Assembly: GCA_034670305.1 (NCBI GenBank)
Contig: JAXMNT010000014.1
Coordinates: 64,001-128,000 of the forward strand
Direction: 5' to 3'
DNA: 64,000 nucleotides
Source: Deltaproteobacteria bacterium
GTDB taxonomy: Bacteria > Myxococcota_A > Polyangia > Polyangiales > Houyiibacteriaceae
Shown piece by piece: positions 42,317 to 58,395 of this stretch. Below the pieces are notes generated by a model, which ran no database searches, was not told the DNA's origin, and saw nothing but the letters and a program-made list of their open reading frames with translations. Made by a program: the position numbers and the translations under genes. How positions within the stretch are numbered: position 1 is the first letter of the stretch; every line of letters starts with the position of its first letter.

Positions 42317-42408
42317 CAGGTCGCTGAAGAGCGACCTGCTCCCTTGCCGTTGCCCGTGCCCGTGCCCTTGCCCGCGTCGTGGACGCCGTGTGTTTCGCGA
42401 CGGCCTAG
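42313..42408 (+). mobile_element. Truncated copy of the CTAG-bounded MITE-like element
   Basis: CTAGCAGGTCGCTGAAGAGCGACCTGCTCCCTTGCCGTTGCCC...GCGTCGTGGACGCCGTGTGTTTCGC nearly identical to 4610-4695; CTAG at both ends. Confidence 0.7.
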
Positions 42409-43919
42409 AAGCCGGCGTCGCCGGGCTGGCCTTCGACCGGCTCCGAACCCGCGGCATCTTCGACGGGCTCCGAACCCATGCCGCCCTCGACCGGTTCCGA
42501 ACCCGCGCCGCCTTCGACCGGGCCCGTGCCCGTGTCGCCGAATGCCGGTGCGGCCTCGGGCTGCGCGACTTCGGGCTCCGGCTCCGGTGTGATGTCGGGC
42601 TCCGGCTCGACTTCGGGCTCCGGCTCCACGAACGCCGACGATCGGTACTCCACGCCGCCCTCGCCTTCGCGGGTTTCACCGCGGCCGAAGTGGTAGGAGA
42701 AGTCGACGTAGATGCCGCTGAGCTTGATGGAGTACTCGCCGGCTTCACCGCACGACAGGCACCCATCGCGTCCATCGATGTCCTCCGGCGTGATCGTCGT
42801 GCTGCCGGTTCGGAAGGCGTACGCCACGTTCAGCTGCCAGGGGCCGGCGTTGTAGCCGAGTCCTGCCGTCGCGACGTAGGTCGGCGCAGGCGGGGTGCCG
42901 AACGCGGTCGGGTACGCGCGGTTCGACGTCTGCTGGTCCCAGATGAAGCCGAGCCGAATCGGCAGCTTGCCTTCGAGCAACCGGTACTCGGCGCCGAGGC
43001 GCACGGTCCAGGCGTTGGTCCAGTCCGAGATCTGCGTCACGTCGATGACGCCGCGGCCGCCCGCCTCTTCGAGTTGGCCGCGCGGGTTCTGCGACTGCAG
43101 CCCGTACTCGGCGTCCACGGCCACGCCGAACGCGCCGTAGTCCATGCGGCCGCCCATGCTCAAACGACTCGGCAGGGTGAAACTCCCGACCCAGGCGGTC
43201 TCGGCGCTCTCGTCGAAGAGGAAACCCTGCCCCTCCACGTCGGTGGTGGTCTTGTGGCGGTACGCGAGACCGACCGAGAAGTGGTCGAGGAACTTGTACT
43301 GGGCGCCGACCCGAAAGCCGGCGTAGCTCAGCCCGGACAGATCGAACGCGGCCGCGGTGCCCTGGTCTCTCGACCGGTCAAGGCTCGCGTAAGTCACGCG
43401 GTAGCCCGCACCAAAGCTGAGCCCGGTGTCCGGGATCTCGACCGCGACGCCCGGAGAGATCTCCAGGAAGAAGAGCGTCGTCTGGTCGATGCCTCCGTCG
43501 TACTCGTACGTCGCGCCAGCCGACGCGACCGGATACACCGCGAGCCCGACCGTGAGCCAGTCGGTGATGCGACCGGAACCACCCACGAGGAAGAACGGAC
43601 CGACCGTCGTGTTCGACGTGAGGTTCTGGTTGTCCTCGGCCGGGTTGCCCGTGATGGTCCCGACGAGGAGCGAGAAGTCGCCCATCAACGTCAGCCGATC
43701 GGTGCCGCTGAGCCCTGCCGGGTTGTGAAAGAGCGCCGAAGGATCGTCGACGTACGAAACCGCGGTGCCACCCATGCCCATGTGGCGCGCGGAGTAGAGC
43801 ATCGGGGTGTCGTACCCGCCCGCCTTCGCCTGCGAGGGCGCGAGCAGTCCCACCGTGGTGAGTGCGAAGAGGGCCGCGGCCATCCACCGGGCCGGCGTCG
43901 CGGCTGTTGCGTTCATCAT
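42405..43919 (-). CDS. FadL/OmpP1/TodX family outer-membrane transporter
   Basis: AKA|GGY, SARHMGMGG, DDPSALFHNPAGL; barrel strands; acidic C-terminal extension. Start may be 43946. Confidence 0.85.
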   Translation of the reverse strand: MMNATAATPARWMAAALFALTTVGLLAPSQAKAGGYDTPMLYSARHMGMGGTAVSYVDDPSALFHNPAGLSGTDRLTLMGDFSLLVGTITGNPAEDNQNLTSNTTVGPFFLVGGSGRITDWLTVGLAVYPVASAGATYEYDGGIDQTTLFFLEISPGVAVEIPDTGLSFGAGYRVTYASLDRSRDQGTAAAFDLSGLSYAGFRVGAQYKFLDHFSVGLAYRHKTTTDVEGQGFLFDESAETAWVGSFTLPSRLSMGGRMDYGAFGVAVDAEYGLQSQNPRGQLEEAGGRGVIDVTQISDWTNAWTVRLGAEYRLLEGKLPIRLGFIWDQQTSNRAYPTAFGTPPAPTYVATAGLGYNAGPWQLNVAYAFRTGSTTITPEDIDGRDGCLSCGEAGEYSIKLSGIYVDFSYHFGRGETREGEGGVEYRSSAFVEPEPEVEPEPDITPEPEPEVAQPEAAPAFGDTGTGPVEGGAGSEPVEGGMGSEPVEDAAGSEPVEGQPGDAGF

Positions 43920-43994
43920 GCGTTCATCCTCGGTGTCTCGGGTCATGGCCGCCCGAGCCTAGCACTGCCGACCGCCCACGCGATCCGCCAGCTT

Positions 43995-44252: not shown

Positions 44253-45197
44253 ATGATCAGGGTCTGCAAGTCGTCGTTCGTTCTCATTGCCGCCTTCGGG
44301 CTCGTCGCCTGTGGCGCGAACGATGGGCGCCGCCCGACCCGCGACGGCGGCGTTTCGGACGGAGCCGCCGGCGATGCGATGCGGCGGGACGTGGGTGAGT
44401 GCGAGCCGACCGGCAACGAGGGCACCGTCGAGACCTGCACGGACGGGCTCGACAACAACTGCGACGGCCGCCTGGACTGCAGTGATCTCGCCTGCTCCGG
44501 CGTCGGCGAATGTCCGGTGTGCGGCGAGGTCGAGACCCCGCTGGGCGCACCGCTCGCGCTGCCGGACGGGGTCGGCGGCACCGACTGCACCTCGGATGCG
44601 TCCTGCCCCGGCGAGCAGCGCTGCTTCACGACCGATGCCCCCGACATGGAGTGCCGCGAGTCGTACCGCTCGACGCTCGACTTCATCGGCTTCGGTCCCG
44701 CCATCTTCGACTCCGTGAACGACATCCGCTCGGTCTGCGTGACGATGGAGCACTCCTGGCTCCGCGACCTCGAGATCACGCTCGAAGCCCCGAACGGCCA
44801 GCGGGTCCGTCTGCAGGAGTTCCTCGGCCAAGAAGGCGGCGAGATCTACCTTGGCCAGGCCGACGACTGCGACGACAGCGGTTCCCCCACGCCGGGCACC
44901 GGCGCGCACTACTGCTGGACCCCGACCGCGACCCGCCAATCGATGCTCGACTACGCCAACGCGGGCGGCGCGATGGACTCCGCACCCGACTGCCTCTTCG
45001 GAGGCGACACCGACATGATGCCGCCGGGCGACTACTCGGCCGCCGACGACTGGTCCAACCTCATCGGCACTCCGCTGAACGGCAACTGGACCCTCTCGGT
45101 CACCGATCTCTGGGGCAGCGACAACGGCTACATCTTCGACTGGTCGATCTCGTTCGACCCCGTGACCGTCGAAGACTGCTCGTCACCGCTTATCTAA
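44253..45197 (+). CDS. Lipoprotein with proprotein-convertase P-like domain
   Basis: Lipobox LVAC; ETCTDGLDNNCDG motif; HSWLRDLEITLEAPNG, NGNWTLSVTD..DNG. Confidence 0.8.
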   Translation: MIRVCKSSFVLIAAFGLVACGANDGRRPTRDGGVSDGAAGDAMRRDVGECEPTGNEGTVETCTDGLDNNCDGRLDCSDLACSGVGECPVCGEVETPLGAPLALPDGVGGTDCTSDASCPGEQRCFTTDAPDMECRESYRSTLDFIGFGPAIFDSVNDIRSVCVTMEHSWLRDLEITLEAPNGQRVRLQEFLGQEGGEIYLGQADDCDDSGSPTPGTGAHYCWTPTATRQSMLDYANAGGAMDSAPDCLFGGDTDMMPPGDYSAADDWSNLIGTPLNGNWTLSVTDLWGSDNGYIFDWSISFDPVTVEDCSSPLI

Positions 45198-45209
45198 CTG
45201 CCAATACGC

Positions 45210-45280
45210 GCCTGGCTCGCTTCGCGAGTGGCGGCCCCATGTTCGCGCCCGTCTTTCTGAAGGGAAACGTGCTCGCCGCG
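45210..45280 (+). repeat. Degenerate repeat module A
   Basis: GCCTGGCTCGCTTCGCGAGTGGCGGCCCCATGTTCGCGCCCGTC...CGTGCTCGCCGC. Confidence 0.75.
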
Positions 45281-45388
45281 GAGGCGAAGGGCCTCCTTCA
45301 CCCAGTGCACCGAACGTTCCTGTGCATGACTCGTATGCACTTGTGGGAGACTCACCGAGTCGCGCATGAGCGCCTCCGTTCCTCCAAC

Positions 45389-46213
45389 ATGGATACCCCC
45401 ACCTTGACTCGATTGCTCTGCGTCAGCGCCCTCGCCCTCACCCTCTTTGCTTGCACAGACGACACACCCACATGCGGTGTCGTTGGTTCCACCCAGACTT
45501 GTGTCTGTCCCGGCGGGGCGTCGGGTGCCCAGACATGCCAAGCCGACGGCACGTTCGGCGTGTGCAGGTGTTCGGGGATGGACGCGGGAGGCAGCGTCGA
45601 TTCGGGTACGGATGCCGCGTGCATCCCCAGCTGTGGCGCACGTGTGTGTGGCGACGATGGCTGCGGTGGGGTGTGTGGTGAGTGCACGGCGCCCGAGACA
45701 TGCTCGCCGGGCGGCACCTGTGCGTGTGTCCCCAGCTGCGGCGGCGCCGCGTGTGGAGCGGACGATGGGTGTGGGGGCGTGTGCGAAGAGGGCACCTGCT
45801 CGGGCGACGCGACCTGCATGGCGGGTGCGTGCATGATCGAACGCTGCTTGACCGAGTGCATGGATGCAATCCACTGCGACGCCGCCCTCGAAGATTCCTA
45901 CTCGTGCCTCTACTACCCAGACGGAGTTCAGGGAGGCTGCACAGGGTTCATGCGGGATCCATCGAACCCGAGCTGCGAGTTCGAAGCTTGTCCAGAGGGC
46001 TTCACGTGCCGCGGCTTTGCGTGCAACCGCAACTGTGAGACCGCGGCGGACTGCGGTCCCGGCCAGACGTGTGTGGGCGTCAACGGCCCACCCACCCCTT
46101 CGGTCCCGAGACACTGCGCGGTCCGGCTGACGGTCCCGCCCGAGAGTGGCCCGTGTGGACCGGACGGGAGCTGCGCCGACGGCACCCAGTGCCAGGCCGT
46201 CCCCGCGCCTTAA
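45389..46213 (+). CDS. Cys-rich lipoprotein
   Basis: Lipobox LFAC; CIPSCGARVCGDDGCGGVCGEC repeats. Confidence 0.8.
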   Translation: MDTPTLTRLLCVSALALTLFACTDDTPTCGVVGSTQTCVCPGGASGAQTCQADGTFGVCRCSGMDAGGSVDSGTDAACIPSCGARVCGDDGCGGVCGECTAPETCSPGGTCACVPSCGGAACGADDGCGGVCEEGTCSGDATCMAGACMIERCLTECMDAIHCDAALEDSYSCLYYPDGVQGGCTGFMRDPSNPSCEFEACPEGFTCRGFACNRNCETAADCGPGQTCVGVNGPPTPSVPRHCAVRLTVPPESGPCGPDGSCADGTQCQAVPAP

Positions 46214-47268
46214 GCCTCGCGCGCTTCGGCCGCCGGTTGGGTCACGCCGTCGCGGCTGGCCCACCAGTCGGCGAGCACCGGCCAGAGCTTGCGGTGCGCG
46301 CTCGAGCTCACGACCGCGCCGACGTGCCCGCCCGGCAGGTGGGTGTGGGTGAGGTCTTCGCTGGATGCGCGTTCCACGAGCGGCAGCGCGCTCTTCTTCG
46401 GCACGATGGTGTCGTGTTCGAACGTGAGCACGTGCATCGGCATCGCCAGCGTTTCCAGATGCACCGGGTGCCCGTCGAGTTCGAGGGTGCCGCGCATGAG
46501 CGCGTCCTCGCGGTAGAACTTCTGCACCCACGCGCGGAAGAGTTCGCCGGGCAAGGACACGTTGTCGTTCGCCCAGCGCTCCTTCGCGAAGAAGCCATCG
46601 AGCATGTCGTCGGTCCACTCCGCGTCGTGGCGCGCGCGGCCGAGCAAGAACATCGCCTTCGAAGGCGAGAGTAGAGGCTGCGCCAAGGTGAACGCGGTCT
46701 GCAGGAGCGTGGACGGAGCGTTGCCGAGCCCGCCGACGAACGCATCCACGTCGAAGTCCGGGTGTCGGGTCCAGCGCGCGAGCACCGTGTCGTCGTCCTC
46801 GAACGCGACCGGTGCCGCGAGCGTGGTCAAAGACGCGATGCGCTCCGGATGCACCGCGGCGTGCACCGTGGTCAGCGTGCCGCCCATGCAGTAGCCGAGA
46901 AGGTGTGCCTTCGGTGCCCCGCTGTGTTTGCACGCGCGGCGGAGCACACGGCCGATCGCCGTGCCGACCAGATCGTCGAACGAGGTGAACCGGTCCTCCG
47001 GCGCGGGCTGGCCCCAGTCGACCACGTAGACCTCGTGGCCGCGCGCGACGAGCCACTCGACCAGGCTGCGTCCGGGCGCGAGGTCGAGCACGTACCAGCG
47101 GTTGATGAGCGAAGGCACCATGACGATCGGCGTCTGGTACCGGCGCTCGGTCGGCACGAAACGCAGGAGGCGCCAGCGGCGCTCGGCGTGCACGACCTCG
47201 TGACGGGTCTGCGCGACCTCGGGCTTCGGCCGGCGCAAGAGCCCGGCGAGGTTCTTCCACATCGCCAT
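46210..47268 (-). CDS. phaC: PHA synthase, class III/IV PhaC subunit
   Basis: TPIVMVPSLINRWYVLDLAPGRSLV, DWG, GYCMGG (catalytic Cys), EHDTIV, GGHVG. Confidence 0.88.
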   Translation of the reverse strand: MAMWKNLAGLLRRPKPEVAQTRHEVVHAERRWRLLRFVPTERRYQTPIVMVPSLINRWYVLDLAPGRSLVEWLVARGHEVYVVDWGQPAPEDRFTSFDDLVGTAIGRVLRRACKHSGAPKAHLLGYCMGGTLTTVHAAVHPERIASLTTLAAPVAFEDDDTVLARWTRHPDFDVDAFVGGLGNAPSTLLQTAFTLAQPLLSPSKAMFLLGRARHDAEWTDDMLDGFFAKERWANDNVSLPGELFRAWVQKFYREDALMRGTLELDGHPVHLETLAMPMHVLTFEHDTIVPKKSALPLVERASSEDLTHTHLPGGHVGAVVSSSAHRKLWPVLADWWASRDGVTQPAAEAREA

Positions 47269-47270
47269 GG

Positions 47271-48965
47271 TCAGCCCGGCTCCTCGTAGAGCGCCGCGAG
47301 CCGCTCCCCGAAGCGTTCGTAGATCGCCTTGCGACGGATCTTCAACGTCGGGGTGAGCAGCCCGTCTTCGACCGTGAGCGGCTCGTCGATCACCGCGAAC
47401 TTCTTGATCGTCTCGAACCGCGCGAGCTGTGCGTTGACCCGATCGATGCGGGACTGAACGAGCGCGTCCCGCGCGGCCAGCCGTTCGTCCGCCGCGACGC
47501 CGTCGAGCTTCTTGGCGATCGCGGCCTCGTCGATCCAGACCCCCGCCACGAGGTACTTGCGCGCGTCGCCGTAGACGACGACCTGGGTGACGTAGGGGTC
47601 GGCGGCGAAGCGGGTCTCGATGTTGGTCGGGGCCACGTTCTTGCCACCCGCGGTCACGAGAATGTCCTTCTTGCGGCCGATGATCTGAAGGAAGCCGTCT
47701 TCGGTGAACCGGCCGAGGTCGCCGGTGCGAAAGAAGCCGTCTTCGTCGAACGCGGCCGCGGTGGCTTCGGGGTTGTCGTGGTAGCCGCCGAAGATGCTCG
47801 GCCCGCGCGCGAGGATCTCTCCGTCGTCTCCGAGTTTGAGCTCGACCGAAGGAAACGGCTTGCCGACCGAGTCGAAACGAAACGCGCCCGGCCGGTTGAG
47901 CGTGAGCGTGGGCGAACATTCGGTGAGGCCATAGCCCTCGAGCAGGAGCACATCCTGCGTGAAGAAGAAGTCCTTCACCCCGCGGTCGAGCCCCGCGCCG
48001 CCGCTCAGACAGAACCGCAGCCGGCCGCCCGTCACCCGCGCGAACTCGGTCGCGGCGTCCGGCGCCTTCTGGGACCACGTCGCGAGCTTCTCCCATACAC
48101 TCGGCACACTCATGAAGACGTGCGGGCGCACCCGCGGAAGGTCGTCCATCACTTGCTTCGGATCGCTCAAGTAGCTGACCCAGCCGAGCTGGTTGCCGGC
48201 GCCCGCTTCTCCGTAGCCGAAGATGTGGCTCATCGGCAGCCAGAGCAAATCCACCGCGCCTTCGTCGAGTCGCTCGGCGTTGTTCTCGAGCCAGTCGCGC
48301 CCGTTGACGCCGACGTTGCGGTGGGTGAGCGGCACCCCCTTCGGTGGTCCGCTCGTGCCGCTGGTGTAGAGCATGATCGCCGGCTGATCGAGGTCGATCG
48401 CCGCGAGCTTCGCGTCGAGCGCGCCCGGATCCTCCGCCGCGACGGCCGCGCCTTTGGCACGCAGCATCGACCAGGTGAGCACCCGCTTCGCAAGCGCCGG
48501 CACCCGCTCTTCGAACCCGGCCCGAAGCCGCCCGGCGAGCCCGTCCTCGAAGACGACGAACGCGTCCACGTCGGCGCAATGCTCAGCCGCTTCGACGATG
48601 CGGTCGATGAGCGGCGCGGTGTCGACGAAGAGCACCTTGGCGCCGCTGTGCCCCACCACATACGCCGCCTGTTCGGCGGTGCTCGACCCGTAGATCGGCA
48701 CCATCACGCCGCCGGCGGCCTGGATGCCGAGCGCGGCCGAGAGCCACTCGACGCGGTTGGGCGCGAAGATGCACGCGCGGGCACCCGGTGCGATCGGCAG
48801 GCCGAGCGCGACGTCGCGGATCTGTTCGGCGAACGTGCGCCAGGTCACCGGCTGCCAGGCGTCGCCGTCGGGCACCATGAACCGCGCCTGCTCGCCGCGC
48901 GCTTCGAGGTGGTCGAAGATCACCGCGGGGGCGGGACGGATCGCGAGGTAAGGAGAGACGTCCAT
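47271..48965 (-). CDS. Long-chain fatty acid-CoA ligase (AMP-binding)
   Basis: [52 protein letters not shown]. Confidence 0.92.
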
Positions 48966-48966
48966 C

Positions 48967-49308
48967 TCACGCTCCGTCGGTGGAGGCGCCGCGCGCGGCT
49001 TCGAGATCCTCGAGCTTCTCTTCGAGGTCGATGAGCCGGCTCTGCAGCTCGTCGATCGCACGCAGGGTGCGGACTTGGTCTTGCTGTGTCGCCAGCCCGA
49101 AGCCGCCCCACCAATCGCGCAGGAAACGCTGCTGCTTGCGCTGCGCCCGCGTGACCAAACCAAGCACTTTGCCGGCCGGTGCGAACGTCGAAGCACTGCC
49201 GAGCATGGACTCGAAGAGGGGGGCCGCGGCGGTTTCCCAGGCGCGGTAGGTCTGCTCGAAGAGCGACCAGGGATCGGGGGTCTCGTGCGGGTCGTTGGGC
49301 TGGGTCAT
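48967..49308 (-). CDS. phaE: Short PhaE-like PHA synthase subunit
   Basis: [23 protein letters not shown], coiled coil [15 protein letters not shown]; sits upstream of phaC. Confidence 0.65.
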
Positions 49309-49331
49309 GGGTCTCGTACCTGGTTGGCGAA

Positions 49332-50171
49332 TCACTCGAGGGAGAGGCGGCGCAGCTCGCTGGCCACGTCGAAGTCGGGGTTGGTCTCGTCGGGGCGGCT
49401 GGTGGCACGCGCGACCTCGCCGAAGCACTCGAAGAGCCAGCTCACCTGGCGGCGGCTGGTCGGTGCGCCGACGGTCGGTTCCACGGTGACGCGGGTGTCG
49501 ACGCGGTGCGCTTGGTCGAAGCTCAGGTCGGGCAGCTCGAGCCGCCCGGTGCCGACCACGCGCACTTCGTAGACGTCGCGTCCCGCGTAGGGCAGACCGA
49601 GCAGGGTGCCGCCCGACACCTCGCCAACCGACACGTGTTCCGAGCCGGCTTCGATCGGGAAGCGGTAGAGCAGCACCGGCGCGGTGTAGACGAGCAAGGT
49701 CTGTCCGGAAGCCGGCGCCTCTTCGCGGCTCGCGACACCGTGCAAACGCAAACCGTCCGGGTCGTGGGTGTAGACCCCGAGCGTGTTGCCCGCCGCGTCC
49801 ACCGGCGCGGCGAACTCACCAGCCGGGAACGAGTCCGCGAACCAGTGATCGCCGAGCGCACTGGCTTCGATGCGGGCGATTCCGTCGTCGGCGAAGTCGA
49901 GTGAGAGGTCCCAGACCCGCTGCTCGTCGATCACCGTGCCGACCACGTTCACGGCGCGCTCGGTGCCAGGCGGGTTGACGACCAGCCCGACCGGGATGCC
50001 GAGCGCCGGTTGGATCTCGACCGCGTCGATGCGGCCGTCGAGGTTCGGGATGCACTCGAGCCCGCCCGCGTCCGGACCGACGAATGCGTCGCGGATGGGG
50101 AAGGTCTGGTTGGTATTGCAGGCGAGCAAGAGCAGCCCGGCGAGCGCGACCGTGGGGGTTCGGAACGTCAT
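49332..50171 (-). CDS. Lipoprotein (paralog of 52959-53915)
   Basis: Lipobox LLAC; CIPNLDGRID, RVWDLS, ECFGEV, ELRRL. Confidence 0.8.
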   Translation of the reverse strand: MTFRTPTVALAGLLLLACNTNQTFPIRDAFVGPDAGGLECIPNLDGRIDAVEIQPALGIPVGLVVNPPGTERAVNVVGTVIDEQRVWDLSLDFADDGIARIEASALGDHWFADSFPAGEFAAPVDAAGNTLGVYTHDPDGLRLHGVASREEAPASGQTLLVYTAPVLLYRFPIEAGSEHVSVGEVSGGTLLGLPYAGRDVYEVRVVGTGRLELPDLSFDQAHRVDTRVTVEPTVGAPTSRRQVSWLFECFGEVARATSRPDETNPDFDVASELRRLSLE

Positions 50172-51844
50172 CAGTAGTGCAGTCCCAGTCGGAAGCGGAG
50201 CAGCTGCGCGGGTTTCGCGTCGAGGCCCGCGCTCGGGTTGTCAAAGGCAGCGAATGGAAAGAACGCCGCGTACTCGATCGCGGCGACGAAGCCGTTCGTG
50301 GTGGTGTAGGCGAGCGTCGGGTCGAGCTCGATGCCGAGCGGGCGCGCACCGCTCGGCGTGCTGGAGGCCTGCGCCGCAAACGACGCGATGACGGCGAGGG
50401 AGAGATCGAGGCGGCCGGGTCCGACCTCGGCCAGGCGGATGCGGCCGTGCGGCCTCAGGTAGATGGTGTCGGTGACGGTGCCGAGGATCTCTCGGAAGAG
50501 GATCCGGTCGATGCGGTAGTCGGGATGAAACCGGAAGTTGTCGACGCGGGTGTCGAAGGGCGCGGACGCCTGCGGTCCGTCGATGTCGCCGGCCACCGGC
50601 GCGGGTGCGTTCGGACCGCCGTTGCGTGCGCCGAGCTGCGCACCGAATCCGGGCGAGGGATCGCCGCTCGCGTAGCCCGCGTCGAAGCCGGCTGCGACGC
50701 CGCCGGTCTGCACGCCGTGATCGGGACCGAACTCGGACTCGAACGCGAGCCCGAACTGGCGACTCGTGAACGCGTCCCGCAACTCCACGCCCGGAATGAG
50801 CGAAGGCTGACCGATGCGGGCGCCGAGGTACGCCGCTTCGAGTTCGATGCGCCCGGTCGGAAGCGTGAGCCGCGCCCAGACGTCCACCGCGGTGGCCCGG
50901 AAGTCGCGCGGGGTGACCTGCGCGCCGTCGATGGCGACGGGGCTCGCGACCGGGAGGTAGTGCGCCGGCACGTCGCGGTCCTGCCAGCGGTGCGACACGT
51001 ACGCGCCGTACTCGAAGCTCGGCTTGCCGGCGCGCGCGCGGCGCCGGCGCGCGACATCGGAGTGGAAGTCGAGCACCGCGAAGGTCACCGTGCGCACATC
51101 GTCCCACGGGTCGAGGTCGACGGCGCGGCGGGGGTGGTTGCGCGGGGTGCTCGGACCGGTCGCGGTGAAGTCGTAGCTGATCGCCCACACGTGGCCGAGC
51201 AGCGGCGTGAGGAAGGCGATGCGATCGGCGGCGTCGCCGCTGTCGCAGCTCGCGCAGTCTCCGCCGTTGGCGAGCATGCCGAGGCCCCAGTGGTTGCCCA
51301 TGCGCCCGAACGCGAGCAACCCGAACGGGGTCAACACCTCGCCGTACGCGCGTTTGATCCGGATGGGCTCGCGCGCATCGCGTTGCGACACCGCGACCGA
51401 AGGCACCCCGTCCGGTTGGGAACCGAGCGAGAGGTTGTCGAGTCCGTCGAGGCGGATTTTGATCGCCACCGACGCGGCCGGCACGATGAGCGCGATGTCG
51501 GTGCGCAAGCGCATGTCCGCGTGGGTCAGCGTCTGCGCGTTCGGGTCGGAGAGCGGCACCGGGAAGAGCGCCTGACCGCTCGGGCTCAGCCCGCGGTCGA
51601 GGTCGAGGTTGTAGAGCAACTCGAAGCGCGCCCGAAGCGCGCCCGAGAAGTGCACGGTGGTCTCGGCTTCGGACTCGATGTCTTGGCCGATGTCGGTGAA
51701 GCCGGACGCCTCCGCGGGCGACGCAGCCGCCAGCACGAGGAGCACGGAGAGCACGGCCCACGGGCACGCGGTCCTTGCGGTCCGTGCGGTCCGCATGGGG
51801 CGCGCGCGCCGCGGCTGCGCGAACGATGGACGCAGATCGATCAT
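50171..51844 (-). CDS. Outer-membrane beta-barrel, TIGR04551-like
   Basis: RFELLYNLDL, ADMRLR, IKRAYGEVLTPFG, GRMGNHWGLGMLANGGD, FRFHPDYRIDRILFREILG; C-terminal GLHY. Confidence 0.8.
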   Translation of the reverse strand: MIDLRPSFAQPRRARPMRTARTARTACPWAVLSVLLVLAAASPAEASGFTDIGQDIESEAETTVHFSGALRARFELLYNLDLDRGLSPSGQALFPVPLSDPNAQTLTHADMRLRTDIALIVPAASVAIKIRLDGLDNLSLGSQPDGVPSVAVSQRDAREPIRIKRAYGEVLTPFGLLAFGRMGNHWGLGMLANGGDCASCDSGDAADRIAFLTPLLGHVWAISYDFTATGPSTPRNHPRRAVDLDPWDDVRTVTFAVLDFHSDVARRRRARAGKPSFEYGAYVSHRWQDRDVPAHYLPVASPVAIDGAQVTPRDFRATAVDVWARLTLPTGRIELEAAYLGARIGQPSLIPGVELRDAFTSRQFGLAFESEFGPDHGVQTGGVAAGFDAGYASGDPSPGFGAQLGARNGGPNAPAPVAGDIDGPQASAPFDTRVDNFRFHPDYRIDRILFREILGTVTDTIYLRPHGRIRLAEVGPGRLDLSLAVIASFAAQASSTPSGARPLGIELDPTLAYTTTNGFVAAIEYAAFFPFAAFDNPSAGLDAKPAQLLRFRLGLHY

Positions 51845-52962
51845 CGCGTGCCCCACGGGTTGCGGCCGGTGTCGCTCGGTTCGTTCGCGGGGGCATCCGA
51901 TGTTGGGTCCGATGGATCCGCAGTGTCCGGGTCGGCGGTCGGGCCGTCGCCCAGGTCGGGCCGCGGAGCCGGAACCGTCTGCGCCTGCGGCGGTTCGGTG
52001 GAACGCGCGGTCGAAGTTTCGGTGGCTTCGCCCGGCTGCAGGAACGCCAGCAGGTCGCGGGTCGAAGGACGGGCCGCTTCGATCATCGGGAAGTGTCCGC
52101 AGAGCGGATAGACCTCGAGCCGCGCGTTCGCCAGATCGTTGGAGAGCCGTTCGCCCACCTCGAGGGTGGTCACCGCGTCTTCGCGTCCCCAGAGCAGCAG
52201 CACCGGCTGTTCGATCTCCCGGTAGTGCGTTTGCTGGGTCTCGAAACGCATCGCCCGAACCGACGCCAGCGCCGCGGCGCGGGTGCCCGGCCGCCGAACT
52301 TGCGCCTCGACTTCCTCGACGAGCGCCTGCGGGATGATCTCCGGGTCGTGGAACGCGAGCGCGATCTTGTCCTCGGTCCGCTCCGCGTAGAAGCCCGCGA
52401 AGATCATCTCGCCGACACCGCGCGCACGGGCCCAGTGAAACGTGGTCGGCAGCTGCTCGGCGTACACCCACGCGTCGTAGAGTGCGATGCGCTCGACCCG
52501 TTCGGGCGCGACGAGCGCGACCTTGAGCGCGATGGACGACCCGTAGGAGTGGGCGACGAACGCGGCGCGATCCACGCTGCGGGCGTCCATGAGCGCGAGC
52601 ACGATGCGCGCCTGCTCTTCGGGGGAGTAGTCGCCCGCAGGCCGGCCGCTGTGGCCGAACCCTTTGAGATCGAGCGCGAGCACCCGGTAGTCGTCTCGCA
52701 GCGCTTGCCGCACGCCGGTCCAGACGCCGATGGAGCTCGCGAAGCCGTGGACGAGCACGACGACCGGCGCGTCCCGCGGGCCCTCGTCGACGTAGCGGAT
52801 CGAAGTGCCGCGCAACGTCAGGAAGGTCGCCTCGTCCGGCGACTCGGGCAGCGTGCCCGCGTGGTAGGGCAGACAGCCGCTCAAACTCACCAGCGTGGTG
52901 AGAGCGGCGAGTCCGAACCGGACCGACCTCCCTCTCCGAGCACGCGTCGCGGCACCGGTCAC
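51841..52962 (-). CDS. Lipoprotein alpha/beta hydrolase
   Basis: LSGC lipobox; HGF, DLKGFG, AHSYG nucleophile, WGRED, GHFP. Confidence 0.88.
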   Translation of the reverse strand: MTGAATRARRGRSVRFGLAALTTLVSLSGCLPYHAGTLPESPDEATFLTLRGTSIRYVDEGPRDAPVVVLVHGFASSIGVWTGVRQALRDDYRVLALDLKGFGHSGRPAGDYSPEEQARIVLALMDARSVDRAAFVAHSYGSSIALKVALVAPERVERIALYDAWVYAEQLPTTFHWARARGVGEMIFAGFYAERTEDKIALAFHDPEIIPQALVEEVEAQVRRPGTRAAALASVRAMRFETQQTHYREIEQPVLLLWGREDAVTTLEVGERLSNDLANARLEVYPLCGHFPMIEAARPSTRDLLAFLQPGEATETSTARSTEPPQAQTVPAPRPDLGDGPTADPDTADPSDPTSDAPANEPSDTGRNPWGTR

Positions 52963-53915
52963 GGCGCGAGCCTGCGGACTTCGGCGAGCTCGATGAGCTC
53001 GTCGCCGTCGTCGTTGTCGTTGCCGGTGAGCACTGCGACCGTTCCGAAACACTCGGTGACGAGCGCGAAGCTGACTTTGGTGGTCACCGCGAAGCCCACG
53101 GTGCGGCGAAGCTCGGTGCGGACCCGCAGCACATCGAAGCGGCCGAACGGCGTGACGAGCGTGCCCTCCGCATCGACCTCGCTCGAGTACGTCTCGGTGT
53201 AGTTGCTGAAGATCCCAAGCGCGAGGCCACTGACCGTCACGTCGCTCTCCCAAGAGGCGCCGAGCGAGAGCGGAAACTGCAGCACCGAGACCGCCGGGTC
53301 GTTCTCGAGGTTGGTCCGGTCGAACCCTTCGTCGGGCGAGACCACCCCACGCAACGAGAGCGTGCTGCCGTCGACTTCGAAGACGCCGAGCAGGTCGCTC
53401 TCGAGGCTGAGCGGGGTCACGTACGTCGCGCCGGGATAGTCCGAGTCGAACCACTCCCCGCTCGGGTCCGCGGTCTCGACGAGCACCATGCGGTCGCCGG
53501 TGAAGTCGGCGCTCAGATCCCAAGTGCGCACGCCCTCGACCATCGTGCCGGCGGTGTTGAACGCGACGTCGGTGGCGCCCCGAAAGGTGGCCCGCAGGCC
53601 GGCGCGGATCGGGACCTCGGCGCGTTCGATGATCCCGTCGCGGTTGGGCGCGCAGACGATGCCGCCGCCGTCGCCGGCGTCCATCGCCGGCGCGTCGGCT
53701 GCCGGTGCGTCGACCGCCGCGTCGACGGCTTCGGGGGCGTCGGGCTGGAACGCGTCGCCGGCGCCAGCGTCGGCGTCGACCGGCACGCAGCGACCATCGG
53801 CCATGCAGATGCCGGACGCGCAGTCGGCGCCGACGGTGCACTGGCGCCCACTGTTCGCGGCGCACGCGCCCACGACCAAGCCCAGCACCACCCCGATCCA
53901 CCCGTGCACGTTCAC
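52959..53915 (-). CDS. Lipoprotein (paralog of 49332-50171) with N-terminal Cys motif
   Basis: VVGAC lipobox; CAPNRDGIIE, RTWDLS, ECFGTV, EVRRL; GTG start estimated. Confidence 0.78.
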   Translation of the reverse strand: MNVHGWIGVVLGLVVGACAANSGRQCTVGADCASGICMADGRCVPVDADAGAGDAFQPDAPEAVDAAVDAPAADAPAMDAGDGGGIVCAPNRDGIIERAEVPIRAGLRATFRGATDVAFNTAGTMVEGVRTWDLSADFTGDRMVLVETADPSGEWFDSDYPGATYVTPLSLESDLLGVFEVDGSTLSLRGVVSPDEGFDRTNLENDPAVSVLQFPLSLGASWESDVTVSGLALGIFSNYTETYSSEVDAEGTLVTPFGRFDVLRVRTELRRTVGFAVTTKVSFALVTECFGTVAVLTGNDNDDGDELIELAEVRRLAP

Positions 53916-54018
53916 CCGACACCTCCATCGACCTTCGCACGTGCAGGAGAATCTCTTGCGCAGTGCAGCGAGGCCGAACGCCGACGAAATACGGGACGTT
54001 CCGAGCACTGTCAACCAG

Positions 54019-54057
54019 ATTGTTGCAACGCACAATGCTCGACCTTGCAGCGCAGCA
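54019..54057. promoter_or_regulatory. PhaR-like TGC-N3-GCA boxes in the divergent promoter
   Basis: ATTGTTGCAACGCACAAT and TTGCAGCGCAGCA upstream of phaR. Confidence 0.7.
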
Positions 54058-54080
54058 CGAATCCCGCTATCACCCTCCCC

Positions 54081-54623
54081 GTGATCATCGTCAAGAAGTA
54101 CAGCAACCGGCGCCTCTACGACACCGACCAGAGCCGCTACATCACCCTGGACGAGCTGGCCGAGCGCATCCGCGCCGGAGACGACGTGCGGGTGGTCGAC
54201 GCGAAGACCGGCGACGACCTCACCCAGCCGGTCCTTGCGCAGATCATCCTCGAGAGCCGCGGCGCGGCGAAGCTCTTGCCCGCCACGCTGCTCGCGCAGC
54301 TCATCCGCATGAACGACGAGGATCTCTCGAATTTCATGGGACGCTACATGTCGTGGGCGCTGGAGATCTACTTCCAGGCGAAACGCGGCGCCTCCCATCT
54401 CGGACCGCTCGGAGGACTCGCGCAAGCACCGTTTCAAGCGACGAGCGCGATGGCGCGCATGCTTCAGGGCATGGGCCCGTGGAACATGCCGGGCATGCGG
54501 CCGCCTGGGGTGACGCCGACCCCACCGGTCGCACCCGAACCGCCCGCCGATCAGGTCGACGACCTGGCGACCCTGCGGCGCGAGATCGAAGCCCTCAAAG
54601 AAGCGATGGGGACCAAGAAGTGA
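54081..54623 (+). CDS. phaR: PHA synthesis repressor PhaR
   Basis: IIVKKYSNRRLYDT.QSRYITL, VVDAKTGDDLT..VLAQIILE, LAQLIR. Confidence 0.92.
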   Translation: MIIVKKYSNRRLYDTDQSRYITLDELAERIRAGDDVRVVDAKTGDDLTQPVLAQIILESRGAAKLLPATLLAQLIRMNDEDLSNFMGRYMSWALEIYFQAKRGASHLGPLGGLAQAPFQATSAMARMLQGMGPWNMPGMRPPGVTPTPPVAPEPPADQVDDLATLRREIEALKEAMGTKK

Positions 54624-54638
54624 GCGCACGCACAAGAG

Positions 54639-54657
54639 TTTGTGCACCGCAACATTT
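54639..54657. promoter_or_regulatory. PhaR-like box upstream of the phasin-like gene
   Basis: TTTGTGCACCGCAACATTT. Confidence 0.7.
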
Positions 54658-54750
54658 CTGTCTTGACGGGAGGCCTTCCGCGACCCAACTTCGGCTCGCC
54701 GCGACAGCGAACTAACGATTTTCACGAACAAAGCGCGGCAAGGAGACCTC

Positions 54751-55029
54751 ATGGACCCGATGACGCAGATGCAGCAGAACATGGCCGCTCAGGCCCAGGC
54801 GATGATGACCGACACGGTCACGAAGTGGTGGAAGACCGCGCTCGAGACCCAGGTCGCGCAGATGAACGCGATGCTCGTGGAGCTCGGCAAAGTGGAGACG
54901 AAGGGCGTCGAGCAGGCCGGCACAGCGATCGACGAAGTCGCGCGGCTTGGCAAAGCGGGCCTCGAAGCCAGCGCACAGCTGCAAGCGGCTTGGCGCCGCA
55001 TCGGGCAGCAGGTGATCGAGAAGGTCTGA
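54751..55029 (+). CDS. Phasin-like small helical protein
   Basis: AGGAG RBS; Ala/Gln-rich amphipathic helices; PhaR-like box upstream. Confidence 0.65.
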   Translation: MDPMTQMQQNMAAQAQAMMTDTVTKWWKTALETQVAQMNAMLVELGKVETKGVEQAGTAIDEVARLGKAGLEASAQLQAAWRRIGQQVIEKV

Positions 55030-55135
55030 GCGAAGACCGGGTCGCCTCTCGAGGCCGCCCGGAAACCCACCGCCGACGCGGGCCGGTCAGCGGTCCGCGT
55101 TCGTGCGTTCCATGTGTTGCGAGAGGAGAGACGTC

Positions 55136-55882
55136 GTGCAGTTGAAAGACCTGAGAGTGATCGTGACCGGCGGTGCGTCGGGCATGGGCCGCCACTTCGC
55201 CGAGCAGCTTCACGCCGCGGGCGCGAAGGTCGCCGTCGGTGACGTGGACGAGGCGAAGCTCGCCACCTTGCCCGAAGGCATCCACCGCGAACGCCTGGAC
55301 GTCTCGAACGAAGACGAGGTCGTGCGTTTCGTGAAGTCGGCGGCCGACGCGATGGGCGGACTCAACGCGCTCATCAACAACGCCGGCATCCTGCGCGACG
55401 GCTTGCTCGTGAAGAAGTCGCGCAAGACCGGCGCGATCGAGAAGATGTCGCGCGCGGATCTGGAGAAGGTCTTCGACGTGAACCTGACCGGCGCGATCTT
55501 GATGGTCCGCGAAGTCGTCGGCCACATGCTCGAACACGACGCCCAGGGTGTGATCGTGAACATCTCTTCGATCGCGCGGCACGGTTCACGCGGTCAGACG
55601 AACTACGTCGCGGCGAAGGCCGCGCTCGCCGCGAACACAGTGACCTGGATGCGCGAGTTCAGCCGCCACGGCATCCGGGTCGGCGCCGTCGCCCCCGGCA
55701 TGGTCGAGACCCCGATGACCGACGGCATGCGGGACGACGCGCGCGATCGCATCGTCGCGTCGATCCCCCTCGGCCGCATCGGCACCCCCGAAGACATCTG
55801 GATGGCTGTGCGTTTCATCTTCGAATGCGACTATTTCACCGGGCGAACCATCGACGTCGACGGTGGCGGTGCGATGGGGTGA
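55136..55882 (+). CDS. SDR oxidoreductase (FabG/PhaB-like ketoacyl-CoA reductase)
   Basis: TGGASGMG, NNAG, NISS, YVAAK; GAGGAG RBS. Confidence 0.9.
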   Translation: MQLKDLRVIVTGGASGMGRHFAEQLHAAGAKVAVGDVDEAKLATLPEGIHRERLDVSNEDEVVRFVKSAADAMGGLNALINNAGILRDGLLVKKSRKTGAIEKMSRADLEKVFDVNLTGAILMVREVVGHMLEHDAQGVIVNISSIARHGSRGQTNYVAAKAALAANTVTWMREFSRHGIRVGAVAPGMVETPMTDGMRDDARDRIVASIPLGRIGTPEDIWMAVRFIFECDYFTGRTIDVDGGGAMG

Positions 55883-56820
55883 CCGAGACTCCTTCCCCAC
55901 GAATCCGCCGGACCGCGGCGACGCCTGAGACATCGCCGGCTTCGAGCCAACCCACCTTGGCCAGCCTGGCCCACCTGACGCGCGGGCTCCCGCCGCTGCA
56001 ACAGATCACGCTCGGCAAGTTCCGGATCGCGTACCGCGCCAACCTCACCGGCCGGGGCGAACCGCTCCTGTTCGTGCACGGGCTCGGCAGCTCGCACCTG
56101 GTGTGGGCACGCGCGCTGCCGCTCCTCGGTCGCCCTTACGTGGCAGTCGACCTCCCCGGCTACGGCGAGAGCGACAAACCACGCTACGGCTACACGCTGC
56201 CGTTCTACATGCGGCGGCTGACGCGCTTGCTCGATGCGCTCTGCATCGAGCAAGCGACGTGGGTCGGTCATTCGATGGGCGCCCAGATCGCGGTGCTCGC
56301 CGCACTGGAAGCGCCCGCCCGAGTGCGCGCGCTGCGGCTCTTCTCCCCGGCCGGCTTCGAGACCTTCGATGCGTCGCAGGCCGACGTGCTGCGCGCGCTG
56401 ACCACCGTCGGCAAGGTGCGGAACGCGCGCCGCGCCCAGGTCGAGAACGCGATGACCATGGGGTTCTTTCGCCGCCCCGCCGAAGCCGATGCGCTCGTCG
56501 CCAGACGGATGGCATTCCAGGGCGCGGAACTCGATGGCTACGCGCACGCGTTCAGTCGATCGGTCCGCGCGATGCTGGAGGCGCCGGTGCTGCACCGCTT
56601 GAGCGAACTCGAGGCGCGAACCCCGACTGTGCCCATGTCGATTCGGCTCGGCGCCGAGGACCAGCTGGTCCCGAGCCGACTCTTCGGTGCCGCTTCGCCC
56701 GCGACACTGCTCGAGTCCATCCGAGACGAGCTCCCCGACGCCGAAGCGGCCTTGGTTCCGGAGGCGGGCCACCTGCTCCCGTTCGAGCGGCCCGAGATCG
56801 TGGCAGAGCTTTTGGCGTGA
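55879..56820 (+). CDS. Alpha/beta hydrolase (possible intracellular PHA depolymerase)
   Basis: HGLG, DLPGYG, GHSMG, GAED, AGHL. Confidence 0.85.
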   Translation: MTETPSPRIRRTAATPETSPASSQPTLASLAHLTRGLPPLQQITLGKFRIAYRANLTGRGEPLLFVHGLGSSHLVWARALPLLGRPYVAVDLPGYGESDKPRYGYTLPFYMRRLTRLLDALCIEQATWVGHSMGAQIAVLAALEAPARVRALRLFSPAGFETFDASQADVLRALTTVGKVRNARRAQVENAMTMGFFRRPAEADALVARRMAFQGAELDGYAHAFSRSVRAMLEAPVLHRLSELEARTPTVPMSIRLGAEDQLVPSRLFGAASPATLLESIRDELPDAEAALVPEAGHLLPFERPEIVAELLA

Positions 56821-56829
56821 CCCGGGTCG

Positions 56830-56866
56830 TGCTGCAACGCACAATAGATTGTTGCGGCGCACAAAT
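56830..56866. promoter_or_regulatory. Tandem PhaR-like boxes upstream of the symporter
   Basis: TGCTGCAACGCACAAT-AG-ATTGTTGCGGCGCACAAAT. Confidence 0.72.
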
Positions 56867-56901: not shown

Positions 56902-58395
56902 ATGGACAACTCGATCGCATGGGGGGCGTTTGGCCTCTACCTCCTGGTGACCACCGGCCTCGCGGTGCGCGGCATGATGAAGACCACCAGTGGCAGCATC
57001 GAGAGTTTCGCGCTCGGCAACCGCGACATGGGCCCGCTCTTGGTCGGGGTGACGCTCGCCGCCGCGATCGCCAGCACCGCGACCTTCGTCATCAACCCGG
57101 GCTTCGTGTGGAAGGACGGCCTCTCGTCGCTCCTGCACTTCGGGGTGGCCGGCACCCTCGGCGTCGTGGTCGGGCTCGTGCTCTTGAGCCGCGGCTTTCG
57201 CCGGCTCGGTGAGAAGCACCGCGCGCTCACGCTGCCGCACTGGGTCGGCGCACGCTTTGGCAGCCGCGGCATGCGCACCTACTTCGCGGGTTTGAACCTC
57301 GTGCTCGCGATCGCGTTCGTGGTGCTCATCGTGAAGGGCTCCGCGCTCGTGATGTCGAGCACCCTCGGCCTCTCCTACGCGACCAGCGTCTTCGTCGTCA
57401 TCGGCTTCGTCTTCTCGTACATCCTGCTCGGCGGCACCTACGCGCACGCCTACACGAACGCGCTGCAGGGTTCGATCATGCTGGTGGTCGCGCTCGCGCT
57501 CATCGGCAGCGGCGTGCACCTCTTCGCCGACGGCGGGGTCTCCGGTTTCTTCGCCGCGCTCGAAGCGCAGGACCCGGCGCTCGTCGCGATGACGAACCCG
57601 AACAGCCCGGTCGCAGGCAGCTTCTTCGAGGTATTCGTCTGCGGCTTCGTCGTGAGCTTCGGCCTCGTCTGTCAGCCGCACATCTTGATGAAGTCGCTCT
57701 ACCTGCGGAGCGAGAAAGACCTGAACCGCTACCTCGTGGTCGCAGCCCTCGTCGGCGTCGGTTTCGCGCTCGTGCTGCTCGTCGGTTTGTTCGCGCGGGT
57801 CGCCTACCCCGAGCTCGCGGTCGGACCGGAAGCGATCACCCAGGACGCGGTGGTCCCGGTCTACATCCAGCACGCGTTCGGCAGCACCGCCGGCGCGCTC
57901 ATCAGCGTCGCGCTCTTGGCCGCCGGCATGAGCACCATGGACGGCATCCTCGTCTCGGCCTCGACCATCGCCGGCAACGACCTGGTCCTCGGTCTCGTCG
58001 GAAGCCGCGTCGCAGAAGAAGAGCGCCCCGCCCTCGCCCTGCGCGCAAGCCGCGTGCTGCTCGTGCTCATGGGCGTCGTCTCCTTGGTCATCGCGCTCGA
58101 CCCGCCGGCCGTCGTCGGCCTCTTCGCGTTCGCCGGCATCTATGGCCTCGTCGCGGCATCGGTCGCGCCGGTGGTCTTCGGCATCTTCGTCGACCGCACC
58201 CCACCCCGCTGGGCATTCGCCGCGTCGATCGTCGGCCCCGCCGTGCACTTCGTCCTCTACCTCGGCGTCGGCGTGACCAACCCCGCCGTCACCGGCACCT
58301 TCGGCGTCGTCGCCGGCTGCGCCGTCCTCGGCCTCGGCGTCCTCCTGCAACCCCAGCCCCTCACCGAATCCGCCGCGGTCGCCGAAGGCGCCTGA
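56902..58395 (+). CDS. Sodium:solute symporter (PanF-like)
   Basis: About 13 TM; FALGNR, ASTATF..PG, TNALQG, QPHI, AAGMSTMDG. Confidence 0.88.
   Translation: MDNSIAWGAFGLYLLVTTGLAVRGMMKTTSGSIESFALGNRDMGPLLVGVTLAAAIASTATFVINPGFVWKDGLSSLLHFGVAGTLGVVVGLVLLSRGFRRLGEKHRALTLPHWVGARFGSRGMRTYFAGLNLVLAIAFVVLIVKGSALVMSSTLGLSYATSVFVVIGFVFSYILLGGTYAHAYTNALQGSIMLVVALALIGSGVHLFADGGVSGFFAALEAQDPALVAMTNPNSPVAGSFFEVFVCGFVVSFGLVCQPHILMKSLYLRSEKDLNRYLVVAALVGVGFALVLLVGLFARVAYPELAVGPEAITQDAVVPVYIQHAFGSTAGALISVALLAAGMSTMDGILVSASTIAGNDLVLGLVGSRVAEEERPALALRASRVLLVLMGVVSLVIALDPPAVVGLFAFAGIYGLVAASVAPVVFGIFVDRTPPRWAFAASIVGPAVHFVLYLGVGVTNPAVTGTFGVVAGCAVLGLGVLLQPQPLTESAAVAEGA

Follow-up and report, generated by a model that had tools for sequence, protein, structure and literature searches.

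A polyhydroxyalkanoate synthase operon with a conserved outer-membrane and lipoprotein module in Myxococcota

We analysed a stretch of 64,000 nucleotides from a bacterium of the Myxococcota lineage Houyiibacteriaceae (GenBank assembly GCA_034670305.1, contig JAXMNT010000014.1, positions 64,001 to 128,000; hereafter the window, to which coordinates refer), which contains a gene cluster for a polyhydroxyalkanoate (PHA) synthase. Since the DNA contains about 69% G+C, genes were called from the GC content of the third codon position and by reading of the open reading frames, and gene starts in relatives are approximate. Seven minus-strand genes called in this way fill 46210-53915. From 5' to 3' they encode a lipoprotein A (lipoA), a lipoprotein alpha/beta-hydrolase (hyd), an outer-membrane beta-barrel (barrel), a second lipoprotein A' (lipoA'), a small coiled-coil protein (small), an AMP-forming acyl-CoA ligase (ligase) and the synthase PhaC. 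A gene for the regulator PhaR diverges from lipoA across a region of 130 bp. The operon of a polyester synthase thus opens with four genes for envelope proteins, and the ligase gene lies between both synthase genes.

The seven genes are tightly packed. In the order given, the first three junctions are overlaps of 4, 4 and 1 nt, including overlaps of the translational-coupling type, and the remaining ones are gaps of 23, 1 and 2 nt. Within the operon, terminator-like sites were not above chance (6 found, 3.9 +/- 2.7 expected), and no sigma-70-like promoter was found. From the tight spacing and the conserved synteny described below we infer that the seven genes are co-transcribed. The initial annotation, made from the sequence of the window, had described a packed minus-strand run with gaps of at most about 25 bp and several overlaps; the measured junctions agree with this layout. 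Its gene calls were likewise borne out.

The association of the envelope genes with the synthase genes is widely conserved. In a first set of loci, collected around PhaC orthologs from 20 genomes of more than 10 families, 18 of the 20 loci are colinear with the window (lipoA-hyd-barrel-lipoA'-small-ligase-PhaC) and carry a divergent phaR; in one of the other two the module has moved behind phaR and a second PhaC, and one is without the module. A PhaC with 44% identity or more is present in 71 of the 401 Myxococcota genomes sampled. In 55 of these 71 the barrel gene is located 1.4-4.1 kb upstream with the same orientation as PhaC; 4 have it on the opposite strand of the same contig and 7 on another contig, and in 5 no barrel gene was found. 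We also searched all species genomes with the lipoA' alignment alone, which yielded 234 relatives, and took the best 80 loci, four of which repeat contigs fetched earlier. All of these best 80 belong to Myxococcota (Sandaracinus, Polyangiaceae, Archangium-labelled genomes, Labilithrix, Bradymonadales and Persicimonas). When at least 3.4 kb of downstream sequence was present, small, ligase and PhaC followed in 58/61 loci; with at least 4.3 kb upstream, barrel, hyd and lipoA were found in 57/57 and a divergent phaR in 56/57. Linkage of the envelope genes to phaC in related genomes, the point on which the initial annotation had made its own proposal depend, therefore holds across many Myxococcota families (58/61, 57/57 and 18/20 loci). 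The carriers are mostly uncultured soil and marine Myxococcota.

The association extends to deeper lineages. From 16 genomes that have a barrel gene and no close PhaC we fetched 10 of the barrel loci. In 9/10 a PhaC-like gene (31-33% identity) and/or a ligase-like gene (25-38%) lies directly beside the module, before or after it and in either order. phaR is not adjacent in five of the distant module-linked loci (L146, L150, L152, L154 and L155). In a quick unrooted tree the window-type PhaCs form one well-supported group (26 rows, SH-aLRT 99), PhaCs linked to a reductase gene form another group, and the distant PhaCs beside the module belong to neither. Of the distant ligases, the two that were scanned (L152 and L154) are members of another family, which is PRK06187/MenE-like. 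As the distant PhaCs stand outside the window clade and the ligases come from another family, it is the activity and not the ortholog that has been retained. The partnership of module, ligase and PhaC has thus been kept through rearrangement and non-orthologous replacement, which we regard as strong comparative evidence for a shared function. The coordinates of the operon and of the features on its divergent side are collected in Table 1.

Table 1. Genes and predicted operator sites of the PHA locus (window coordinates; aa, amino acids)
Feature	Position	Strand	Remarks
lipoA, lipoprotein A	52959-53915	-	316-318 aa; GTG start at 53915 or 53909; lipobox ending in Cys
hyd, lipoprotein alpha/beta-hydrolase	51841-52962	-	373 aa; lipobox; Abhydrolase_1
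barrel, outer-membrane beta-barrel	50171-51844	-	557 aa; signal peptide; TIGR04551
lipoA', lipoprotein A'	49332-50171	-	279 aa; lipobox; paralog of lipoA
small coiled-coil protein, mini PhaE/PhaR(class IV)-like	48967-49308	-	113 aa; orthologs match PhaE models
ligase, AMP-forming acyl-CoA ligase	47271-48965	-	564 aa; AMP-binding and AMP-binding_C_3
PhaC, class III-like PHA synthase	46210-47268	-	352 aa; TIGR01836, PhaC_N
Two predicted PhaR operators	54024-54035, 54046-54057	.	exact consensus, between lipoA and phaR
phaR, polyhydroxybutyrate (PHB)-responsive repressor	54045-54623	+	PHB_acc_N and PHB_acc; divergent from operon
Predicted PhaR box	54640-54651	.	exact consensus, before p92
p92, small helical protein	54751-55029	+	92 aa; phasin-like by position only
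FabG/PhaB-like short-chain dehydrogenase/reductase (SDR)	55103-55882	+	family match
Second alpha/beta-hydrolase	55957-56820	+	family match
Three overlapping predicted PhaR sites	56830-56864	.	exact consensus, before symporter gene
Sodium:solute symporter (SSF)	56902-58395	+	family match

The synthase half of the operon resembles class III PHA synthases. On the class III model TIGR01836 PhaC scored 242 bits (cut-off 365.3), within the range of 195-282 bits obtained for seven other Myxococcota PhaC-type proteins, and it also matched PhaC_N. It aligns to the catalytic domain of the class I synthase of Cupriavidus (5hz2) with Cys127, Asp286 and His315 in register, and this triad, which stands in a lipase-box context, is kept in 77/77 orthologs. 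In this genome, which is 96% complete, the window PhaC ranks as the best candidate for a PHA synthase. Besides it there is one clear candidate only, namely the N-terminal region of a PhaC-like/acyl-CoA-synthetase fusion encoded on another contig (C43:51792-54674); the fused gene encodes about 960 aa and matches NF005898 over positions 7-954 (905 bits, cut-off 925). The window PhaC matches the same acyl-CoA synthetase model of 994 positions with 66 bits at positions 37-364, and the window ligase was absent from the NF005898 matches at E<=1e-8.

A typical PhaE is much longer than the 113 aa of the small protein, and the window copy gave no family match at E<=1. Its orthologs, however, match PhaE models, 15/19 of them Pfam PhaE PF09712 (best 7.8e-9) and 16/19 TIGR01834 (best 7.1e-10), while 7/19 also match the class IV PhaR subunit TIGR02132, so that the earlier label "short PhaE-like" is justified by the orthologs. 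We predict that PhaC and this mini PhaE form a heteromeric class III-like PHA synthase. The ligase matches AMP-binding (2e-61) in addition to AMP-binding_C_3. Its best NCBIfam match is FadD11 with 247 bits, far under the cut-off of that model, and the nearest solved structures are adenylation domains of carboxylic acid reductases, FadD13 and FadD5.

The operon is accompanied by a regulator of PHA metabolism and by its predicted operators. PhaR matched PHB_acc_N (PF07879) with 94.2 bits (Pfam cut-off 25, E 5e-27); on the equivalog model TIGR01848 it reached 99.6 bits, below the cut-off of 109.45. A PhaR operator consensus, TGCRNYGCASMA, has been derived by footprinting in Bradyrhizobium (PMC6201568). 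This Bradyrhizobium consensus occurs at 7 exact sites in the 64-kb window compared to 0.65 expected, a number reached in 0/100 shuffles, and six of the seven sites sit in the PHA locus (Table 1). Two of them lie at 54024-54057 in the operon promoter region, where the initial annotation had placed PhaR-like boxes. An exact consensus is present within 600 bp upstream of lipoA in 43/74 loci. A related motif (TGTTGC-N3-GCA-MMA) scored above the shuffled 95th percentile in 56/58 orthologous lipoA/phaR intergenic regions, a generous count since the motif matrix was trained on the same sequences. The seventh exact site (40931-40942) is 13 kb away from the PHA locus. It falls at the 5' end of a gene (40042-40968, minus strand) for a 308-aa protein without a Pfam match, and this gene is possibly a further PhaR target.

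On the phaR side of the locus p92 is preceded by a PhaR box, and a box near p92 was found in 13/20 loci. Assignment of p92 as a phasin was rejected because no phasin-family match was obtained. PhaR boxes ahead of the SSF gene are not a general feature: in the upstream region scanned, exact or one-mismatch sites were present in 2/13 relatives (L003 and L027) and exact ones only in L003. Most other carriers (L005-L020 and many of L030-L099) encode, beside the FabG/PhaB-like reductase on this side, another class III-like PhaC with 35-39% identity; this second PhaC is absent at that place in the window genome and its closest relatives. On the other side two Cys-rich secreted proteins (44253-46213, plus strand) adjoin the 3' end of phaC, and a FadL/TodX- and PorV-like outer-membrane protein is encoded nearby (42405-43946, minus strand); no counterpart of the latter gene was found in a search of the related loci. 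The whole of 46210-55900 is contained only in four sequencing runs from one study labelled plastic metagenome, possibly the source of the assembly, and three marine runs contain less than 10% of the sampled words; these occurrences were not used as evidence.

The barrel, termed TIGR04551-like in the initial annotation, scores above the curated cut-off of that family (353.4 bits, cut-off 300; 351 bits in the genome search) and covers positions 3-518 of the 519 model positions. Comparison of its profile with an alignment of 19 Myxococcota Alginate_exp proteins by hhalign gave a probability of 89% (E 2.4e-6, 362 columns, end to end), while negative controls from unrelated pairings gave 0.1-0.2%. 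A language-model search for look-alikes also pointed to Alginate_exp (0.97). The Pfam hidden Markov model (HMM) Alginate_exp (PF13372), in contrast, found no match among 84 barrel orthologs at E<=1, nor in the genome at E<=10, suggesting that the barrel is a remote relative of the AlgE family and not a member. A match to Toluene_X (FadL/TodX) was absent for the barrel and its 84 orthologs. The alignment contains many invariant arginines, which would suit an anion-selective pore. A second TIGR04551 barrel of the genome (C4:119826-121439) scores better with 446 bits and stands alone among housekeeping genes; at a third locus (C47:44234-50936) two weaker barrel-like genes flank two unrelated lipoproteins. 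The PHA-linked barrel is therefore a specialised paralog.

The lipoproteins lipoA and lipoA' are paralogs with 32% identity over 246 aa (E 5e-21). In lipoA the lipobox Cys is followed by a short segment rich in Cys, then by a linker (about 60 aa) of low complexity composed of Asp/Ala/Pro and by the conserved domain common to lipoA'. Neither protein gave a Pfam or NCBIfam match, and no Pfam match was found among 104 family members. In lipoA' a Cys pair (C40/C249) is invariant, and residues 42-52 form a near-invariant loop resembling an EF-hand (P42, N43, D45, G46 and E52). The pattern Cys-x-Pro-Asn-x-Asp-Gly-x-Ile...Glu at lipoA' residues 40-52 is also present in the matching part of lipoA. The resemblance to calcium-binding EF-hands comes from weak PDB and Pfam signals with E of about 0.04-0.13; in the PDB profile search with the lipoprotein alignment the sole signals were of EF-hand type (E about 0.1, profile residues 18-47), and the searches with the barrel and lipoprotein alignments otherwise returned nothing meaningful. 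An automatic cluster name had suggested a LolA-like carrier (PF17131) for lipoA'. This candidate was rejected because no Pfam match was found in the 104 members, the family HMM was silent on the genome and hhalign gave a probability of 0.2%.

The lipoprotein A family is large, with 1561 representative proteins at E<=1e-3. A separate word-indexed search gave 587 relatives; among the 120 matches listed all source names are "hypothetical protein" and none has a Pfam domain on record. The family also includes proteins with two or three domains in tandem (P0001, P0241, P0242 and P0272 among the members noted), and in one database protein an N-terminal transporter of the major facilitator superfamily (MFS) is joined to a lipoA domain. 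The sorting rule for lipoproteins in Myxococcus concerns Lys at position +2. Lys was found at this position in 0/170 detected lipoboxes, which argues for a location of the operon lipoproteins in the outer rather than the inner membrane.

The lipoprotein hydrolase matches Abhydrolase_1 (1.2e-31) and ends in a low-complexity C-terminal tail. Its triad Ser139/Asp262/His290 is kept in 69/69 aligned orthologs. Among solved structures it is closest to meta-cleavage-product (MCP) hydrolases, to the membrane phospholipase PlaF (6i8w) and, over the N-terminal half only, to the PHB depolymerase 8ynv. On TIGR02240 hyd reached 28.5 bits (cut-off 250.6). An assignment of hyd as a PHB depolymerase is therefore not supported: the protein is no closer to these enzymes than to other alpha/beta-hydrolases and its model scores lie below the cut-offs.

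Apart from the signal peptide of the barrel, the seven core proteins contain no membrane-spanning segment. Carriers of the inner membrane, MFS or SSF, were present at 31/110 loci. One type of MFS gene lies immediately before lipoA in 8/110 loci, often with a 4-nt overlap, a second type immediately after PhaC in 9/110, and an SSF symporter is encoded nearby in 14/110. No PDB relatives were found for the two MFS types. Genes for PhaJ, thiolase or beta-oxidation were not among the 14 largest clusters of neighbours at the 110 loci. The largest of these clusters is a 91-aa protein without a family (22/110 loci), and no other neighbour family is widespread.

The locus shares features with several known systems. 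Synthesis of PHA is usually described as purely cytoplasmic and fed from acetyl-CoA or beta-oxidation. Like class III/IV PHA loci, the operon has a PhaC of about 350 aa with Cys-Asp-His, a small coiled-coil partner, PhaR with consensus operators and a PhaB-like reductase nearby. It differs in that PhaC scores under the class III cut-off, the partner has only 113 aa, the ligase is inserted between both synthase genes and the operon begins with four envelope genes. In E. coli, FadL/FadD are the paradigm for the vectorial acylation of fatty acids taken up from outside. The present locus is comparable in combining an outer-membrane channel and a cytoplasmic AMP-forming ligase without a dedicated inner-membrane carrier in the core, but the barrel is not of the FadL/TodX type, lipoproteins, hydrolase and polymerase are included in one operon and the proposed fate is storage and not beta-oxidation. 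With AlgE-type barrels the window barrel shares a full-length colinear profile match, many conserved arginines and a lipoprotein partner next door; unlike them it leaves the Pfam HMM silent, lacks genes for polysaccharide synthesis beside it and belongs to a family, TIGR04551, that is centred on Myxococcota. Fused PhaC-like/acyl-CoA synthetases (NF005898, PRK07868) couple the same two activities, and the match of the window PhaC covers the first, N-terminal third of their model, whereas the operon encodes the activities in separate genes, ligase followed by PhaC.

A search of the literature (full text, with subscription-only papers outside its scope) found no description of a synthase operon with an envelope module, and TIGR04551 was unmentioned. 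The statement of the initial annotation that it knew of no such arrangement agrees with this result. What is new is accordingly that a PHA locus includes a conserved envelope module and a ligase encoded within the operon, an arrangement for which no published description was found.

As the most coherent reading of the locus we consider a route, first put forward in the initial annotation and here placed under control of PhaR, in which (hydroxy)acyl esters from outside the cell would be captured, hydrolysed, imported, activated and polymerised again. We assign it a probability of about one half, with direction and substrate both inferred. Extracellular or periplasmic material with ester-bound (hydroxy)acyl groups would be captured and cleaved by the lipoproteins and the hydrolase, and the free acid would cross the outer membrane through the barrel. 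The inner membrane may be crossed unaided, the acid being trapped by the ligase as in vectorial acylation by FadL/FadD; alternatively the MFS or SSF carriers added in some lineages may serve this step. The ligase would form the CoA thioester and the adjacent PhaEC would polymerise it into granules. In the classical model PhaR is titrated by nascent polyester, and here this would derepress the operon once polyester begins forming.

This route is favoured because the core contains no inner-membrane protein, two unrelated ligase families have been recruited, SSF and MFS carriers recur at the locus and a predator among the Myxococcota is reported to store PHA during predation. Import is favoured over export since the core is without an exporter, the SSF carriers stand for uptake and a ligase is needed for incoming free acids and not for outgoing products. 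As substrate, which cannot be read from the hyd sequence, we prefer a 3-hydroxyalkanoate or its oligomers, which would come from foreign PHA or from further esters of 3-hydroxyacyl type. The ligase adjoins PhaC, a pair of activities that is fused in a paralog elsewhere in the genome, and the conserved core has no enzyme for conversion of acyl-CoA to 3-hydroxyacyl-CoA, so that the ligase product could feed PhaC directly. Plain fatty acids that enter via beta-oxidation are our second choice.

The predator is Bradymonas sediminis, a physiological precedent: it accumulates PHA during predation, and the study that describes this proposes that it gathers fatty acids from its surroundings (PMC7460792). 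Metagenome-assembled genomes (MAGs) of Bradymonadales carry the cluster (L058, L070 and L100). In the main text of that paper the words phaC, lipoprotein and acyl-CoA are absent; its text supplements do not contain TIGR04551, mention PHA terms only in a KEGG presence table and hold no expression data for the cluster.

Several observations weigh against this route. It is derived from sequence comparison, and the nearest detectable family of the barrel, the AlgE type, is known for export. PhaC and PhaR remain below the cut-offs of TIGR01836 and TIGR01848. The hyd profile is closest to MCP hydrolases, the half-length match to 8ynv is no better than that to many other alpha/beta-hydrolases, and on the depolymerase model NF050089 the protein reached 74.5 bits (cut-off 300). 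Both ligase families resemble ligases for medium- and long-chain fatty acids and not known ligases for short hydroxyacids. The MFS type found after PhaC also matches the exporter-type Pfam family MFS_3, and the PhaR boxes ahead of the SSF gene are not conserved. All 80 named carriers are metagenome-derived (79 titled MAG and one a "metagenome" chromosome). Finally, at L148 the module occurs without a PhaC within 10 kb, a ligase-like gene also not being found there, and the PhaE-ligase-PhaC half occurs without envelope genes in L012/L158, L159 and L160. Since each half can occur alone, the envelope module is an accessory and not an obligatory part of the synthase.

The separate occurrence of the halves (L148; L012/L158-L160) would also fit a mere co-regulation, in which the envelope genes form a unit for nutrient uptake or envelope maintenance that merely shares the PhaR-controlled promoter with the synthase genes, so that both respond to carbon excess. 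PhaR of Bradyrhizobium indeed regulates many genes outside PHB metabolism (PMC6201568). However, the module stays by PhaC-like and ligase genes despite permutation and replacement by paralogs, and does so in deep lineages even where phaR is not adjacent (the five loci named above), which makes sharing of a promoter alone hard to credit. We consider this explanation unlikely.

We consider it quite unlikely that the locus does not concern PHA at all and that the PhaC-type enzyme is an acyltransferase or lipase acting on neutral lipids, with scavenged fatty acids being stored or remodelled as lipid esters. The mycobacterial fused PhaC-like/acyl-CoA-synthetase protein sits on lipid droplets. NF005898 matches the window PhaC, the full fused form is encoded in the same genome and the ligases resemble fatty-acid ligases. 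Against this stand the much higher score of PhaC on the class III model (242 bits vs 66 bits on NF005898), the synthase-type Cys nucleophile in 77/77 orthologs and the pairing with a PhaE-like subunit and PhaR.

The founding member of Alginate_exp exports a polymer, and the remote relationship of the barrel to this family (hhalign 89%, look-alike 0.97) together with the MFS_3 match of one carrier type might suggest that ligase and PhaC-type enzyme make a short hydroxyacyl oligoester or a similar amphiphile that leaves via the barrel. The lipoproteins would then serve as carriers in the periplasm and the hydrolase as trimming enzyme. This we hold to be the least probable explanation, given a conserved core without an inner-membrane exporter, the recurrence of SSF carriers, which are uptake systems, and a PhaE-like subunit, PhaR and operators that point to intracellular granules.

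A more specific form of the scavenging route is, in our view, less likely than not. In this form the operon would encode a dedicated trans-envelope feeding line, in which an AlgE-like anion channel, two lipoproteins of a new fold with a loop of calcium-binding type and a tethered esterase strip hydroxyacyl units from polyesters and lipids of prey or the environment and pass them via the ligase into a specialised PhaEC. If this were true, predators would bank prey carbon as PHA and bypass central metabolism.

In summary, a synthase operon that opens with a channel, lipoproteins and an esterase and that is widely conserved in predators and degraders among the Myxococcota points to an uptake-coupled route of storage. 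If confirmed, the route would provide a first functional context for the TIGR04551 barrels and for a large family of "hypothetical" lipoproteins, and its parts (channel, esterase, ligase and synthase) would be of interest for recycling the breakdown products of polyesters into new polymer. It would also account for the way in which predatory Myxococcota come to fill their PHA granules during feeding.

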